DNA from: a virus
Taxonomy: Duplodnaviria; Heunggongvirae; Uroviricota; Caudoviricetes
Length of the DNA: 11,651 nucleotides
IMG/VR virus record: IMGVR_UViG_2657245006_000001
Reading direction: 5' to 3' (one strand)
The notes beneath the pieces are model-generated. The model worked only from the letters and a program-made list of their open reading frames with translations. It had not been told where the DNA came from and ran no database searches. The translations under genes were made by a program, and so were the position numbers. Of the stretch, positions 3,500 to 10,821 are shown in pieces. Within the stretch, counting starts at the first letter, position 1; each line of letters starts with the position of its first letter.

Positions 3500-3922
3500 T
3501 CACAGTACCGCCTCCTGAAAATTACCCTGATAGAAAGCCAGTACACGCTGCATAGCTTCACTCTTCCGGCACTCGCGACAGATTATGTTTAGGCGACTGT
3601 CGTAGCGACGTATTTCTCCGTCAGGTGATGACCAGATAAGGTCCGGATCAACCACAGCAGGTTTCTTCACCTTTGCCCTCGAGAGTTTTTTGCGGGCGTT
3701 TTGCCAGTCCTTACGCGCCTGTTCAGAGGGGAATAACCCGTAGCCGGAGTTGTATACATCGCCGCTGGCAACCAGCTCTCTTGCGAGAACGCTCATCAGA
3801 TATCTTGTCGCACCTGTCTTGACTTCCAGTTGCCGTAACGTCTCACGCCCACTCTGGCGTACGAGTTCAACAACCTGCCCTTTAATTTTTTCTCGCTCTT
3901 CTTGTGTAAAAACTTTTGCCAC
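3500..3922 (-). CDS. Hypothetical protein, 140 aa, putative helix-turn-helix
   Basis: GTG start at 3922..3920 with AGGAGG 4 nt upstream; TGA at 3502..3500. Contains an HTH-like stretch (TLRQLEVKTGATRYLMSVLARELV). Sits directly downstream of the replication initiator. Confidence 0.6.
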   Translation of the reverse strand: MAKVFTQEEREKIKGQVVELVRQSGRETLRQLEVKTGATRYLMSVLARELVASGDVYNSGYGLFPSEQARKDWQNARKKLSRAKVKKPAVVDPDLIWSSPDGEIRRYDSRLNIICRECRKSEAMQRVLAFYQGNFQEAVL

Positions 3923-5757: not shown

Positions 5758-5848
5758 GAGTCGCTCCATAAAACTGAACGTCAAAAGTTTAATAATCAAA
5801 ACCAAAGAAAGTCAAGAAACAAAACCATCTGTGTTTTAAAATCAAAAC
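5758..5848. promoter_or_regulatory. Divergent immunity promoter and operator region between cro and cI
   Basis: AT-rich 91-bp spacer. AATCAAAAC is repeated at 5792-5800 and 5840-5848, with TCAAAAG at 5781-5787. Imperfect palindrome TGTTTT-aaaatc-AAAACA at 5832-5849. TAAAAT (5837-5842) lies about 7 nt before the cI ATG and no Shine-Dalgarno precedes it, consistent with a leaderless cI mRNA as in lambda PRM. A leftward -35 TTGACT (minus strand, 5815..5810) could serve cro. Confidence 0.45.
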
Positions 5849-6487
5849 ATGAGCAAGCAAACTATATCTGAACGCATAACCCAACGTATGCATGCGCTAA
5901 ACCTGAAAGGCAAAGACCTTGTCAATGGCACTGGCGCATCAAAAGGCTCCGTAAGTCAATGGATGAACGGTGGAGGAGCGCCGTCCTCGCGTTACATAAG
6001 TTCACTGGCAAAAATATTGAAAGTAAACGAAAATTGGCTTCTTAATGGAGGAGAGTTAAATACAGGTGATTCGCTTGATCTATCTTTACCGCCGATAAAA
6101 ACGGTTCCGCTACTATCACTTCAGCAGGCAGCAAGCTGGAGTGATTATATGAAAAATTCCTCAATAACCTCTTGTGTGCAGCTTGTCGGAGAAATCCCGG
6201 TCAATACCTTTGCAGTTGTTCTAGAGAGTGACAGTATGTCAACATCTGGTGGGGGAGTTTCCATCCCAAATGGTTCAACAGTTTTTGTTGATCCCGATCG
6301 AACCGTACAACCAGGAAATATTGTCCTTGCCTTACCCAAAGGGACCACAACACCTGTCATTCGTAAACTGGAGATAGAAGGGCCGGATATTCTTTTAGTC
6401 CCCACGAATCCTCGCTACCCTTCAATTATGCTGGATGATCTATCTTGCATATTGGGCGTATGCTTTAAAATTCAACAAGATATTTAA
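5849..6487 (+). CDS. cI: CI-like prophage repressor, 212 aa: N-terminal XRE-type HTH plus C-terminal S24 (LexA-like) autopeptidase domain
   Basis: ATG at 5849, TAA at 6485-6487. N-terminal HTH (ISERITQRMHALNLKGKDLVNGTGASKGSVSQWMNG). C-terminal domain has the Ser nucleophile context ESDSM and a downstream Lys (VIRKLEIEG), as in LexA and lambda CI. Confidence 0.85.
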   Translation: MSKQTISERITQRMHALNLKGKDLVNGTGASKGSVSQWMNGGGAPSSRYISSLAKILKVNENWLLNGGELNTGDSLDLSLPPIKTVPLLSLQQAASWSDYMKNSSITSCVQLVGEIPVNTFAVVLESDSMSTSGGGVSIPNGSTVFVDPDRTVQPGNIVLALPKGTTTPVIRKLEIEGPDILLVPTNPRYPSIMLDDLSCILGVCFKIQQDI

Positions 6488-6571
6488 CCAACCTCATCTA
6501 TTTGATTAACTGTATGCCATCGTGGTGATGGCTTAACAGCTGCCTGCTTAAAATGTTTTGATAAAAAAACA

Positions 6572-6600
6572 TTGACCTGGAAAGTTCGTCTTTCTAAACT
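6572..6600 (+). promoter_or_regulatory. Candidate early-left (pL-like) promoter
   Basis: TTGACC (6572-6577), 17-nt spacer, TAAACT (6595-6600), with an A-tract just upstream (6561-6570). A short hairpin GCCATC-gtggt-GATGGC (6516-6532) follows the cI stop. Confidence 0.35.
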
Positions 6601-6779
6601 TCATTCATTCCCTCACCCCATCCTACAGAATGCAGGGCAATACTTCGAGTTACCAGGCAGTGGTCAGGGGTTAAGTAGCCAGCCCGAGGCGTAAGAACAT
6701 GACGGCAGGGTTCAACTTTAATAACTATGCAGCAGGTTTTTGTTCCGCTACCCCGGCGTTAAGGGGAAATGAGGTCAGC

Positions 6780-6935
6780 ATGGATACTATCGATCTTGGC
6801 AACAACGAATCTCTGGTGTACGGCGTGTTTCCAAACCAGGACGGCACCTTCACCGCAATGACGTATACCAAAAGCAAAACGTTTAAAACCGAAAATGGTG
6901 CCCGTCGCTGGCTGGAAAGAAACTCAGGTGAGTGA
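6780..6935 (+). CDS. Small hypothetical protein, 51 aa (alternative start at 6699 gives 78 aa)
   Basis: ATG at 6780 with GAGG 5 nt upstream; the ATG at 6699 has GAGG 9 nt upstream. Product MDTIDLGNNESLVYGVFPNQDGTFTAMTYTKSKTFKTENGARRWLERNSGE. Possibly YdaF-like by size and position (recalled, unverified). Confidence 0.5.
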   Translation: MDTIDLGNNESLVYGVFPNQDGTFTAMTYTKSKTFKTENGARRWLERNSGE

Positions 6936-6936
6936 T

Positions 6937-7065
6937 ATGGATTTTGACACAATCATGGAAAAGGCTTACGAAGAATACTTCGAAGGCCTTGCCGAAGGCG
7001 AAGAAGCTCACAGCTTCAACGAATTTAAACAGGCGCTTTCCAGTTCGGCAAAATCTAACGGCTGA
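6937..7065 (+). CDS. Small acidic hypothetical protein, 42 aa
   Basis: ATG at 6937, one nucleotide after the upstream TGA, with AGGTGAG upstream. Product MDFDTIMEKAYEEYFEGLAEGEEAHSFNEFKQALSSSAKSNG, stop at 7063-7065. The track ORF 6932..7141 is in another frame and looks spurious. Confidence 0.45.
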   Translation: MDFDTIMEKAYEEYFEGLAEGEEAHSFNEFKQALSSSAKSNG

Positions 7066-7094
7066 TAAGCGAAACAGCACCGCGAGGAATCAGT

Positions 7095-7313
7095 ATGCAG
7101 AAACGAGAACCCGTCATCATCGCGCCAGACTATACCGATGATGAACTTTATGAGTGGATGCGCCAGAAAATTAATGCAGCGCAGGATCTGAAATGGGCCA
7201 ATGAAGCCAGGGCTAAGCAGGCTGAAAATCTGTCCGCTCTGGAGCAGGATATCACCAATCTGGAAAAAGCAGCGGCATTAAGCATTGCCAGAATGATTAC
7301 ATACCCGCGTTAA
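7095..7313 (+). CDS. Hypothetical protein, 72 aa, probably helical
   Basis: ATG at 7095 with GAGG 7 nt upstream; TAA at 7311-7313. No recognisable family. Confidence 0.6.
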   Translation: MQKREPVIIAPDYTDDELYEWMRQKINAAQDLKWANEARAKQAENLSALEQDITNLEKAAALSIARMITYPR

Positions 7314-7668
7314 TAGCTAACCAACGAAGCTAAGGTTGGTAATTAAGGAGTTCTCCACGGGTGAGGTGGAGTGCGTGCGCCGGACACGGGTGAGCATCCG
7401 GCACTGACAGTTTACTGAAAGGATATTTCCCTGAAAAGTCAGACCATAACGCGAAAGCGCACGGCGAGGTAGCTGGTTCATAGATAGCCTGTCGTTAAAT
7501 TTTCGTCGACCGTGCGCTTCCGGTTGTGGCAACCCGCGAAATGGTGCGGCGGTAAGTATGGCGGGGTTATTTCTTCCCCGTTGAGGACACCGGGTTGTCA
7601 GGTTGACCATACGCTTAAGTGACAACCCCGCTGCAACGCCCTCTGTTATCAATTTTCTGGTGACGTTT
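7314..7668 (+). other. GC-rich structured non-coding block with no ORF (candidate structured RNA, regulatory element or gene remnant)
   Basis: All three plus frames are full of stops; the only minus ORF (7317..7652) starts at a non-ATG codon and is Arg-rich. Perfect stems: 7455-7464 with 7510-7519 (10 bp), 7592-7600 with 7620-7628 (9 bp), 7379-7384 with 7397-7402, 7320-7325 with 7335-7340. CACGGGTGAG repeated at 7356 and 7385. A sampled line hand-counts to about 60% GC. Confidence 0.3.
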
Positions 7669-7711
7669 GGCGGTATCAGTTTTACTCCGTGACTGCTCTG
7701 CCGCCCTTTTT
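7669..7711 (+). terminator. Candidate intrinsic terminator at the end of the structured block
   Basis: GGCGG (7669-7673) pairs with CCGCC (7701-7705); an imperfect inner stem extends the hairpin; T-run at 7707-7711 follows. A U-tract exists only for the plus strand. Confidence 0.4.
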
Positions 7712-7880: not shown

Positions 7881-8069
7881 ATGAAAACGTTATTACCAAA
7901 CGTTAATACGTCTGAAGGTTGTTTTGAAATTGGTGTCACTATCAGTAACCCAGTATTTACTGAAGATGCCATTAACAAGAGAAAACAAGAACGGGAGCTA
8001 TTAAATAAAATATGCATTGTTTCAATGCTGGCTCGTTTACGTCTGATGCCAAAAGGATGTGCACAATGA
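7881..8069 (+). CDS. Small hypothetical protein, 62 aa
   Basis: ATG at 7881 with GAGGA 7 nt upstream; its stop overlaps the next ATG (ATGA at 8066-8069). Product MKTLLPNVNTSEGCFEIGVTISNPVFTEDAINKRKQERELLNKICIVSMLARLRLMPKGCAQ. Confidence 0.5.
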   Translation: MKTLLPNVNTSEGCFEIGVTISNPVFTEDAINKRKQERELLNKICIVSMLARLRLMPKGCAQ

Positions 8070-8257
8070 ATTCAGCATTTGTGCTTGTTCTGACAGTTTT
8101 TCTTGTTTCCGGAGAGCCAGTTGATATTGCAGTCAGTGTTCACAGGACAATGCAGGAGTGTATGACTGCAGCAACCGAACAGAAAATTCCCGGTAACTGT
8201 TACCCGGTCGATAAAGTTATTCACCAGGATAATATCGAAATCCCGGCAGGTCTTTAA
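8066..8257 (+). CDS. Small protein, 63 aa, with N-terminal signal peptide or membrane anchor
   Basis: ATG at 8066, coupled to the upstream gene. Product MNSAFVLVLTVFLVSGEPVDIAVSVHRTMQECMTAATEQKIPGNCYPVDKVIHQDNIEIPAGL; hydrophobic N-terminus, three Cys in the soluble part. Confidence 0.5.
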   Translation: MNSAFVLVLTVFLVSGEPVDIAVSVHRTMQECMTAATEQKIPGNCYPVDKVIHQDNIEIPAGL

Positions 8258-8349
8258 AACAGTTCCGTAATAAATATCCGGTTTCATTCTTATATGCCAG
8301 CAATGGCAGGGATTTGTTCATCCTTAAATCTGTCATGAGGTTAAAACAA

Positions 8350-10821
8350 ATGAGTAAAGTCTTTATTTGCGCCGCTATTCCTGACGAACTGGCAACAAGG
8401 GAAGAAGGCGCTGTGGCTGTAGCCACAGCCATTGAAGCTGGCGACGAACGCCGTGCTCGAGCAAAATTTCACTGGCAATTCCTGGAACATTATCCGGCTG
8501 CTCAGGACTGCGCTTATAAATTTATTGTCTGCGAGGATAAACCTGGCATACCCCGCCCTGCCCTCGATTCATGGGATGCTGAATATATGCAGGAAAACCG
8601 CTGGGATGAGGAGTCTGCTTCTTTTGTCCCGGTTGAGACTGAATCCGATCCGATGAACGTCACTTTTGACAAGCTGGCCCCTGAAGTACAGAACGCTGTC
8701 ATGGTTAAGTTCGACACATGTGAAAACATCACCGTTGATATGGTTATTAGCGCACAGGAATTGTTGCAGGAAGACATGGCAACATTCGACGGACATATCG
8801 TTGAAGCGTTGATGAAAATGCCAGAAGTTAACGCCATGTATCCGGAGCTTAAGTTGCACGCCATTGGGTGGGTTAAGCATAAATGTATTCCTGGTGCTAA
8901 ATGGCCCGAAATTCAGGCAGAGATGCGCATCTGGAAAAAACGTCGCGAAGGTGAACGCAAGGAAACCGGAAAATACACGTCTGTTGTTGATCTCGCCCGC
9001 GCCAGAGCCAATCAACAGTACACTGAAAATTCAACAGGAAAAATCAGCCCGGTCATTGCTGCCATTCATCGCGAATACAAGCAGACATGGAAAACACTGG
9101 ATGACGAACTGGCCTACGCTCTCTGGCCTGGTGATGTGGATGCCGGAAACATTGACGGCAGCATCCATCGCTGGGCAAAAAATGAAGTTATCGACAACGA
9201 CCGCGAAGACTGGAAGCGTATCTCGGCATCAATGCGCAAACAGCCTGATGCCCTTCGCTACGACCGCCAAACTATTTTTGGCCTTGTCCGTGAGCGTCCG
9301 ATCGACATTCACAAAGATCCCGTAGCACTGAACAAATATATCTGCGAATACCTGACGACAAAGGGCGTGTTTGAGAATGAAGAAACAGACCTGGGCACTG
9401 TTGATGTTCTCCAGTCATCAGAAACACAAACTGATGCAGTGGAAACTGAGGTATCTGATATCCCAAAAAATGAAACCGCGCCGGAAGCTGAACCATCTGT
9501 AGAGCGTGAGGGGCCGTTCTATTTCCTCTTCGCAGATAAGGACGGAGAAAAATACGGTCGCGCAAACAAACTTTCTGGTCTGGATAAGGCACTGGCTGCT
9601 GGCGCCACTGAAATCACAAAAGAAGAATATTTTGCCCGAAAAAATGGCACATACACGGGCTTACCGCAAAATGTAGATACCGCTGAAGATTCAGAACAAC
9701 CAGAGCCGATAAAAGTTACCGCTGACGAAGTAAACAAAATTATGCAGGCAGCCAATATCATCCAGCCTGACGCCGATAAGTTGCTTGCTGCATCACGTGG
9801 TGAATTTGTTGAAGGGATTAGTGACCCGAATGATCCGAAATGGGTTAAGGGGATCCAGACCCGCGATTCTGTGAACCAGAACCAGCATGAATCGGAACGG
9901 AACTACCAAAAAGCGGAACAAAACAGCCCAAATGCGTTACAAAACGAGCCAGAAACGAAACAGCCTGAATCAGTGGCGCAACAGGAAGTGGAAAAAGTCT
10001 GCACCGCCTGCGGTCAGACCGGCGGCGGCAACTGCCCTGATTGTGGCGCGGTAATGGGCGACGCAACATACCAGGAAACATTCGATGAAGAGTATCAGAT
10101 TGAAGTTCAGGAAGATGATCCGGAGGAAATGGAAGGCGCTGAACATCCACACAAGGAGAACACTGGCGGCAATCAGCATCACGATAGCGATAATGAAACT
10201 GGCGAGACGGCAGATCACTCAATTAAGGTGAACGGTCATCAAGAAATCACATCCACCAGCAGGACGTGTGACCATCTAATGATCGACCTTGAAACCATGG
10301 GAAAAAATCCTGATGCCCCGATCATCTCAATAGGTGCAATATTTTTCGATCCGCAAACCGGAGATATGGGACCGGAATTTAGTAAGACTATCGATCTGGA
10401 AACTGCTGGCGGAGTCATTGATCGGGACACCATTAAATGGTGGCTTAAGCAATCACGCGAAGCGCAATCTGCCATTATGACCGATGAAATCCCGTTAGAT
10501 GATGCACTGTTACAATTGTGGGAATTTATCGACGAAAACTCCGGTGAATTTTTTGTTCAGGTCTGGGGAAATGGAGCCAACTTCGACAACACGATTTTGC
10601 GCCGTTCATACGAACGGCAGGGGATCCCCTGCCCGTGGCGTTACTACAACGATCGCGATGTACGCACAATCGTTGAGCTGGGGAAAGCCATAGACTTCGA
10701 TGCCAGAACGGCTATTCCATTCGAAGGTGAGCGCCATAATGCACTTGATGACGCCCGTTACCAGGCAAAATACGTTTCAGTTATCTGGCAAAAACTGATC
10801 CCGAGTCAGGCTGATTCTTAA
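8350..10821 (+). CDS. Large early-left protein, about 823 aa: long N-terminal region of unknown function, acidic linker, C4 zinc ribbon, C-terminal DEDDh 3'-5' exonuclease domain
   Basis: Preferred ATG at 8350 with GAGG upstream (the track ORF starts at a TTG at 8314); TAA at 10819-10821. C-terminal roughly 190 aa (from about 10264) carries DEDDh motifs: MIDLET, WGNGANFD, HNALDDA. Zinc ribbon CTACGQTGGGNCPDCG near 10000-10046. Possibly related to proteins annotated as exodeoxyribonuclease VIII in prophages (recalled, unverified). Confidence 0.8.
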   Translation: MSKVFICAAIPDELATREEGAVAVATAIEAGDERRARAKFHWQFLEHYPAAQDCAYKFIVCEDKPGIPRPALDSWDAEYMQENRWDEESASFVPVETESDPMNVTFDKLAPEVQNAVMVKFDTCENITVDMVISAQELLQEDMATFDGHIVEALMKMPEVNAMYPELKLHAIGWVKHKCIPGAKWPEIQAEMRIWKKRREGERKETGKYTSVVDLARARANQQYTENSTGKISPVIAAIHREYKQTWKTLDDELAYALWPGDVDAGNIDGSIHRWAKNEVIDNDREDWKRISASMRKQPDALRYDRQTIFGLVRERPIDIHKDPVALNKYICEYLTTKGVFENEETDLGTVDVLQSSETQTDAVETEVSDIPKNETAPEAEPSVEREGPFYFLFADKDGEKYGRANKLSGLDKALAAGATEITKEEYFARKNGTYTGLPQNVDTAEDSEQPEPIKVTADEVNKIMQAANIIQPDADKLLAASRGEFVEGISDPNDPKWVKGIQTRDSVNQNQHESERNYQKAEQNSPNALQNEPETKQPESVAQQEVEKVCTACGQTGGGNCPDCGAVMGDATYQETFDEEYQIEVQEDDPEEMEGAEHPHKENTGGNQHHDSDNETGETADHSIKVNGHQEITSTSRTCDHLMIDLETMGKNPDAPIISIGAIFFDPQTGDMGPEFSKTIDLETAGGVIDRDTIKWWLKQSREAQSAIMTDEIPLDDALLQLWEFIDENSGEFFVQVWGNGANFDNTILRRSYERQGIPCPWRYYNDRDVRTIVELGKAIDFDARTAIPFEGERHNALDDARYQAKYVSVIWQKLIPSQADS

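Follow-up and report, generated by a model that had tools for sequence, protein, structure and literature searches.

What do the three short open reading frames that follow the candidate pL promoter in the early left region of this phage encode, and what might their products do? The window (the whole stretch of 11,651 nt that was analyzed, from a Caudoviricetes virus record) corresponds to the immunity and early region of an E. coli lambdoid prophage. An initial annotation had placed here three small genes for proteins of 51 (or 78), 42, and 72 amino acids, and the ORF listing confirmed all three on the plus strand at the places given. The features on which the argument draws are the following:

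5849-6487, plus strand: gene of a cI-type repressor of 212 aa with HTH and S24 (LexA-like) domains (Pfam Peptidase_S24, E 4.3e-13; HTH_3)
6554-6572, no strand assigned: operator-like 19-mer TGTTTTGATAAAAAAACAT, with related copies at 5786-5804 and 5832-5850 (repeat search)
6572-6600, plus strand: candidate sigma-70 promoter of pL type (dicBp-equivalent), TTGACC, 17 nt, TAAACT
6699-6779, plus strand: in-frame upstream extension of ydfA (ATG 6699, giving 78 aa), most likely an untranslated leader
6780-6935, plus strand: ydfA, 51 aa, DUF1391 family
6937-7065, plus strand: ydfB, 42 aa, strongly acidic
7095-7313, plus strand: ydfC, 72 aa
7314-7654, plus strand: untranslated spacer between ydfC and dicF (ydfC 3' UTR), without a conserved ORF
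7655-7706, plus strand: DicF small RNA (Rfam RF00039, full length)
7881-8069, plus strand: dicB, cell-division inhibitor of 62 aa (Pfam PF05358, E 2.6e-39; RefSeq of the matching locus)
8066-8257, plus strand: ydfD homologue (DUF1482), 63 aa (Pfam PF07358, E 3.9e-26)

The identity of the three genes as ydfABC follows from the Pfam DUF1391 match of the first protein, the identities to E. coli K-12 proteins, the RefSeq labels, and the downstream order DicF-dicB-ydfD. The 51-aa protein was found to be 100% identical to K-12 b1571 and matched Pfam PF07151 with 98.5 bits (cut-off 27.3; E 1.7e-28) over the complete profile, positions 1 to 48 of 48. The 42-aa protein shares 40 of its 42 residues (95%) with b1572 and matched PHROG 2061 (E 6.6e-27), and the 72-aa protein is identical to b1573 at 72 of 72 residues (100%) and matched PHROG 1744 (E 1.6e-39). 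In RefSeq, the matching loci carry the labels ydfA, ydfB, and ydfC, with "protein YdfB" and "protein YdfC" as the names of the second and third products. Downstream, an Rfam search scored DicF at 76.7 bits (gathering score 48; E 6.6e-16). The gene order ydfA, ydfB, ydfC, DicF, dicB, ydfD lies on one strand, as in K-12, with a gap of 1 nt from the ydfA stop to the ydfB ATG and of 29 nt from ydfB to ydfC; past ydfD, comparison with the annotated locus placed a gene for an 835-aa exonuclease and an excisionase-like ORF. The genes ydfABC have been named and annotated for more than 30 years, and their operon is well studied. In the literature, ydfABC-dicF-dicB-ydfD is the "dicBF" operon (PMC5069750, PMC9438474, PMC10448788). 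The gene set is thus already known, named, and annotated in RefSeq, and the finding of three small genes at this position is correct and not new. The initial annotation had missed both their identity as K-12 ydfA, ydfB, and ydfC and their membership in the dicBF operon.

Could such frames nevertheless be chance or decaying ORFs of a cryptic prophage that give no functional protein? They are very short, in K-12 they are repressed within a defective prophage, and evidence for the translation of ydfABC was not found in the dicBF literature, which documents mRNA (PMC10448788). We consider this reading extremely unlikely, in view of the good Shine-Dalgarno sites, the bias toward synonymous substitution, the conservation across E. 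coli, Salmonella, Cronobacter, and Pantoea phages, the occurrence in sequenced phage records, and the confident structure models obtained for YdfA and YdfC. A GAGG lies 5 nt 5' of the ydfA ATG, AGGTGAG precedes ydfB, and GAGGAA precedes ydfC. When ydfA was compared with ydaF of the Rac prophage, substitutions numbered 5, 6, and 20 at the three codon positions (pN/pS 0.18), and for ydfB against an unannotated ORF of Cronobacter phage phiES15 they numbered 6, 5, and 15 (pN/pS 0.22). Against a diverged E. coli locus, pN/pS was 0.12 for ydfA and 0.17 for ydfB, and across the diverged copies that we compared ydfA ranged from 0.12 to 0.21. For ydfC, comparison with a 56%-identical copy gave a pN/pS of 0.34 in the N-terminal 34 codons, while the C-terminal half, at 0.96, was near neutral or saturated. 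As estimated from these alignments, the amino acid sequences of all three genes are shown to be under purifying selection, with pN/pS of about 0.1-0.3. These values, together with the Shine-Dalgarno sites and the third-position bias, mark all three as protein-coding. Hence, we consider it very likely that the three ORFs are ydfA, ydfB, and ydfC, that they are real protein-coding genes, and that they occupy the promoter-proximal part of a dicBF operon.

The same data bear on the boundaries of the genes. The 42-aa frame had been described as acidic, as masked by a spurious ORF in another frame, and as invisible. It is indeed acidic (10 D+E against 3 K+R; charge about -7.4, pI 4.2) and falls below the 60-aa cut-off, at which the ORFs found were one of 69 aa in another frame (6932-7141, GTG start) and one of 65 aa on the minus strand, and nothing else. 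The 69-aa frame is the masking one, and the third-position bias in the ydfB frame rules it out; the supposed invisibility does not extend to RefSeq, which annotates the gene. We also considered a 56-aa form of YdfB from ATG 6895 and discarded it, since this form lacks a Shine-Dalgarno sequence and would overlap ydfA, and since the homologue in phiES15 begins where the 42-aa form does. As for the two lengths offered for the first protein, the frame is open from 6699, as had been noted, but the 78-aa extension is not conserved, and we rejected it as the conserved form in favor of the 51-aa start at ATG 6780. DNA homology to the Qin prophage of K-12 begins ~38 nt 5' of that ATG. The N-terminal extensions among YdfA database homologues are mutually unrelated beyond the ribosome-binding region, and Salmonella forms start near the 51-aa position. 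One variant has a GTG at that very codon. In K-12, the in-frame extension has a TTG start only, and a separate ATG-containing upstream ORF of 32 aa (listed from TTG) lies in another frame. Some translation from ATG 6699 is conceivable, since a GAGG stands 9 nt 5' of it.

Upstream, the region has the makings of a repressor-controlled early promoter. The promoter-like site at 6572-6600 matches the consensus at 9 of 12 positions, in a scan that overall returned 4 sites against 3.6 expected from shuffled sequence. It lies downstream of the repressor gene, and the 19-nt element adjoins its -35 hexamer (TTGACC). A search for repeats and inverted pairs found the two further copies of this element between the divergent repressor and cro-like genes. 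Such an arrangement of repeat and promoter is the layout that would be expected for OL/pL and OR. It supports a putative repressor-controlled promoter of pL type before ydfA, in keeping with the initial annotation, which had set the three genes directly after a candidate pL. Repressor control of the operon is inferred from the shared operator-like repeat. Repression by DicA from an adjacent dicA/dicC, as for dicBF, was not found here: The locus has the operon module of dicBF but a different immunity module. We propose that the S24 cI-type repressor, which would replace DicA, controls the ydfABC operon of a Qin-like prophage. Folding of the leader between promoter and ydfA gave a z score of +1.87, that is, a structure that is not unusual relative to shuffled sequence, and a riboswitch or put-like RNA in the 5' leader was dropped as a candidate on this value.

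In K-12, a single polycistronic transcript runs from a promoter before ydfA and is processed to DicF, as documented by Northern blot and RT-PCR, and stationary-phase cells contain detectable ydfABC-dicF transcript (PMC10448788). Given the identical gene order, ydfABC would here too form the 5' portion of the polycistronic transcript that yields DicF. This raises the possibility that the ORFs act mainly in cis, as a translated leader that shields the transcript from Rho or RNase and so sets the amounts of DicF and DicB, with peptides that have no function of their own. Consistent with such a role, ydfABC have no phenotype attached to them, and the fold computed for the ydfC-dicF spacer is more stable than that of shuffled sequence (z = -2.4); processing by RNase E and by RNase III has been described in this spacer (PMC5069750, PMC10448788). 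A leader of this type would not, however, account for purifying selection at the amino acid level (pN/pS and third-position bias, as above), nor for a folded domain, DUF1391, that is reused in large multi-domain proteins. The genes moreover occur without dicF, as seen for ydaF in Rac, ydfB in phiES15, DUF1391 in Pantoea phage Nafs113, and the ydfC-like ORF in phage SfIV. We accordingly regard a purely cis-acting function as very unlikely, and favor products that act as proteins.

How these genes are distributed suggests what kind of proteins they are. By megablast, the ydfABC block matched 4115 of 5426 complete E. coli genomes (about 76%), and all three genes were found together in 2311 of the 5426. 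The block is also present in sequenced phage records, including those of Tritos, PhiR42_1, and vB_EcoS-689R5. Taxonomically, the three families are narrow and hardly extend beyond Escherichia, Shigella, and Salmonella; ydfB is found in Cronobacter as well, and DUF1391 in Pantoea phages. Within this range we observed reassorted loci that carry ydfA and ydfB without ydfC, ydfC alone, or DUF1391 alone. Shigella phage SfIV encodes a 40%-identical, unannotated YdfC-like ORF as the first after its repressor. This reassortment points to three independent accessory modules that share one genomic slot rather than to an obligate complex. In mEp460 and in Nafs113, DUF1391 is followed by genes whose translations, read by eye, had no evident likeness to each other or to YdfB.

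YdfB is presumably helical, and a role as a decoy or DNA mimic would be speculative. YdfC was predicted with good confidence by AlphaFold2 (pLDDT 88.9) as a single helix at residues 15-69 that follows an extended N-terminus; this N-terminus carries the motif EPVIIAPDYTDDELYEWM, which is nearly invariant in the family alignment. The long, variable helix is probably a coiled coil.

It might be asked whether at least one of the three is a developmental regulator, such as a protease inhibitor of the cIII kind, an anti-repressor, or an antiterminator by which transcription would pass the terminator of DicF and reach dicB, the exonuclease gene, xis, and int. The modeled YdfC is a long amphipathic helix, and the helical core of cIII is superficially like it. 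Furthermore, ydfABC open the early-left operon, the place taken in lambda by N, and a homologue of N was not noticed in the window. Downstream, read-through at the Rho-independent terminator after DicF is only partial (PMC5069750). Yet the three proteins contain no arginine-rich motif and gave no Pfam match to the N, cIII, or anti-repressor families. Identical YdfA and YdfC are found behind unrelated repressors (DicA in K-12, the S24 cI-type repressor here, and a different CI in Tritos), and the genes are individually dispensable across related prophages. These observations make a regulatory role unlikely. Our best guess is instead that the three ORFs would be translated into small cytoplasmic proteins that serve as independent, exchangeable accessory factors. 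They would bind host or DNA targets in trans, soon after induction or infection, and would be neither toxins nor core phage regulators.

For YdfA, the AlphaFold2 model, built from a 52-sequence alignment, reached a pLDDT of 81.8 and consists of four strands and a C-terminal helix. Structure-based comparison gave little to go on: A Foldseek search of the model, including against the PDB, returned no significant match, and a PDB sequence search with each of the three proteins and with the DUF1391 family profile gave nothing significant, the best match being a designed beta-propeller at E 0.016, with a head decoration protein (E 0.38) and HisF (E 0.28) as the other best matches, likewise not significant. 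Matches of YdfA to AP2/ERF and integrase arm-type DNA-binding domains, which consist of a three-stranded sheet and a helix, were below significance, with dsRBD and UPF0339 folds scoring equally, and hhalign of the DUF1391 profile against the integrase arm-binding domain gave a probability of 0.6%. The net charge of YdfA is -1.5, and its nearly invariant residues include the acidic E10 and D21; this charge and these conserved acidic residues are not typical of a DNA-binding surface. In the PADLOC library, YdfA had only a chance-level match to AbiEi (E 0.0092, 13.7 bits) and YdfB and YdfC had none, and a search of the proteins against NCBIfam gave no significant match. The label "head-DNA stabilization protein D" that some phage records attach to YdfA was set aside, as it looks like an annotation artefact.

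A lead came from the relatives of YdfA. A phmmer search of 1.84 billion representative proteins returned 230 of them, and 16 among the best 150 of these 230 were longer than 200 aa. In 7 of these 16 long relatives, DUF1391 lies beside DarA_N or beside ArdC-N and DUF3560. These seven proteins match PHROG 1926 ("released from the phage upon host infection") or PHROG 7245 ("anti-restriction protein"), and one of them is encoded on a phage contig that also carries portal and tail genes. The fusion is not universal, as one ArdC-N/DUF3560 plasmid protein that we examined lacks DUF1391. Proteins with DarA-N/ArdC-N domains have been described as polyvalent proteins, with DarA of phage P1 among them (Iyer et al. 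2017, PMC5512222); that paper does not mention DUF1391, YdfA, or YdaF. Under those three names, the connection of DUF1391 with DarA-N/ArdC-N was not found reported in the searchable literature. It is the one new lead of this analysis, a weak, guilt-by-association link that may tie YdfA to anti-defence.

Taken at face value, this lead yields a picture in which YdfA would be a free-standing DUF1391 module that is otherwise embedded in virion-associated or plasmid multi-domain proteins, and that phages and conjugative elements may there deliver by ejection along with DarA-N or ArdC-N. The most specific hypothesis, tentative but worth stating, is that YdfA may protect incoming or replicating DNA from host defence; the idea derives solely from the co-occurrence of DUF1391 with DarA-N/ArdC-N domains. 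In a more elaborate form, which we hold to be possible though doubtful, YdfA, perhaps helped by the translationally coupled acidic YdfB, would be an unrecognized anti-restriction or anti-defence factor that is made first after prophage derepression and protects replicating phage DNA. In the large proteins, DUF1391 could also have a neutral role, as an adaptor, a linker, or a module for packaging.

When ydfABC and ydfD were induced from Plac in K-12 without dicF and dicB, growth, viability, and morphology were like wild type (PMC5069750). This lack of effect indicates that the three proteins are not overt toxins, and the result counts against a host-takeover role, which the initial annotation had proposed side by side with anti-defence. 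Its statement that the function is unknown holds, as literature from 2016 to 2026 leaves ydfA, ydfB, and ydfC without an assigned function (PMC5069750, PMC10448788, PMC11551758, bioRxiv 10.1101/2024.09.21.614188, bioRxiv 10.1101/2025.03.22.644768). In an ASKA over-expression screen, ydfA and ydfB appeared among hundreds of candidates for peroxide or hypochlorite resistance, which is not specific. The three genes belong to the uncharacterized "y-ome" of K-12, and about 76% of complete E. coli genomes have matches to them. The occurrence of DUF1391 beside DarA-N/ArdC-N supplies a concrete and cheap anti-restriction or DNA-protection hypothesis for the first gene of the operon, and the anti-defence reading, if true, would assign a function to y-ome genes matched in some three-quarters of these genomes.

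Finally, we compared the locus with named systems. The closest is dicBF of the Qin prophage in K-12 MG1655 (b1571-b1573), which has the same proteins (100%, 95%, and 100% identity), the same spacing, and the same downstream order. The two differ in the control region, which here is unrelated to Qin further than ~38 nt 5' of the ydfA ATG, and in the repressor, which here has 212 aa with HTH and S24 (LexA-like) domains, as opposed to the 135-aa DicA of Qin. The exonuclease gene is intact here and encodes 835 aa; in K-12, IS2 interrupts ydfE, which is a pseudogene. In the Rac prophage of K-12, the DUF1391 protein YdaF shares 89% identity with YdfA across 46 residues, and ydaF, too, belongs to the first operon downstream of racR, the repressor gene of the prophage. 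Rac differs in that a small partner, ydaG, sits upstream of ydaF, in that ydfC is absent, and in that kilR replaces dicB; YdaG was considered as a YdfB homologue and rejected, as no homology was detectable. With the polyvalent proteins, YdfA shares the DUF1391 motif LGNNE...G...DG.F.A.T..SK.FKT..GA..W (Pfam E 1e-17 to 1e-23), but YdfA is the bare 51-aa domain behind an early promoter, whereas the polyvalent proteins are multi-domain proteins of 440-935 aa. AP2 domains, in turn, have a basic sheet surface, which YdfA does not. The N, cIII, Kil, and Gam proteins of lambda resemble the three in position (a leftward operon whose promoter lies downstream of the repressor gene) and in small size. 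They have no sequence or profile similarity to them, as had been judged earlier by inspection: A Pfam scan at E up to 0.01 returned DUF1391 only. Inhibition of division, which in lambda is the task of Kil, falls here to DicB and DicF, further downstream in the same operon.

The domain that constitutes YdfA, DUF1391 (Pfam PF07151), also occurs as a built-in part of much larger phage proteins of 440-935 aa, where its neighbor is DarA_N or ArdC-N + DUF3560. It was found embedded in the following:

P0369, P0389, P0390, P0396, P0397, P0409 and P0427, YdfA relatives from a phmmer search
Locus L010, 8001-10808

Under the names DUF1391, YdfA and YdaF, this link was not found in the paper on polyvalent proteins (PMC5512222). 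Several phage GenBank records (ON470583.1, ON470580.1 and others) call YdfA "head-DNA stabilization protein D." We consider this label to be probably an annotation artefact: The sole trace of likeness between YdfA and a head decoration protein was a nonsignificant phmmer match (E = 0.38).

YdfC displayed an uneven pattern of conservation. Upon comparing the window gene (7095-7313) with its counterpart in the related locus L011 (5001-5216), we observed that the N-terminal 22 residues were nearly invariant, along with a C-terminal helix that had diverged to ~38% identity with a pN/pS of ~1. This combination of a nearly invariant N terminus and a diverged helix suggests either recombination within ydfC or diversifying selection acting on the helix. 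Two small genes were also present, unannotated, in the genomes of reference phages:

Cronobacter phage phiES15 (L006), 3540-3668: YdfB homologue, 42 aa
Shigella phage SfIV (L013), 3501-3707: YdfC-like ORF, ~68 aa, the first ORF past the repressor

The sequences flanking ydfABC were examined as well. The 340-nt untranslated spacer between ydfC and DicF (7314-7654) was predicted to have a more stable fold than its shuffled versions (z = -2.4), with one shuffle among 100 matching it. This stability fits the reported processing by RNase III and RNase E. On the 5′ side of ydfA, the leaders of K-12 (L002, 1903-2001) and of the window (6699-6779) were nonhomologous; both hold a small ORF, with an ATG or TTG start, that reaches or enters the ydfA ribosome-binding site, being out of frame with ydfA in K-12 but in frame in the window.

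Elsewhere, the window carries a type I toxin-antitoxin locus of the hok/sok kind on the minus strand (1564-1888):

1564-1719: HokD-like ORF, 51 aa
1717-1888: match to sok antisense RNA (Rfam RF01794, 106.7 bits)

Two further genes set the window apart from K-12. The first encodes an exonuclease:

8314-10821: intact exonuclease gene, 835 aa, with a C-terminal DEDDh-type domain

Its homologue in L011 matches Pfam YdfE_N + YdfE_C, and whereas the K-12 counterpart, ydfE, is an IS2-truncated pseudogene, the window gene is intact. The second is the repressor gene (5849-6487) upstream of the dicBF-type operon, whose product is LexA-like with an S24 peptidase domain in the window, in contrast to dicA in K-12 Qin. 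The K-12 Qin dicBF operon was reported not to be SOS-inducible (PMC5069750); with an S24-domain repressor ahead of the operon, DicF, DicB, and YdfABC may be SOS-induced in the prophage type represented by the window.
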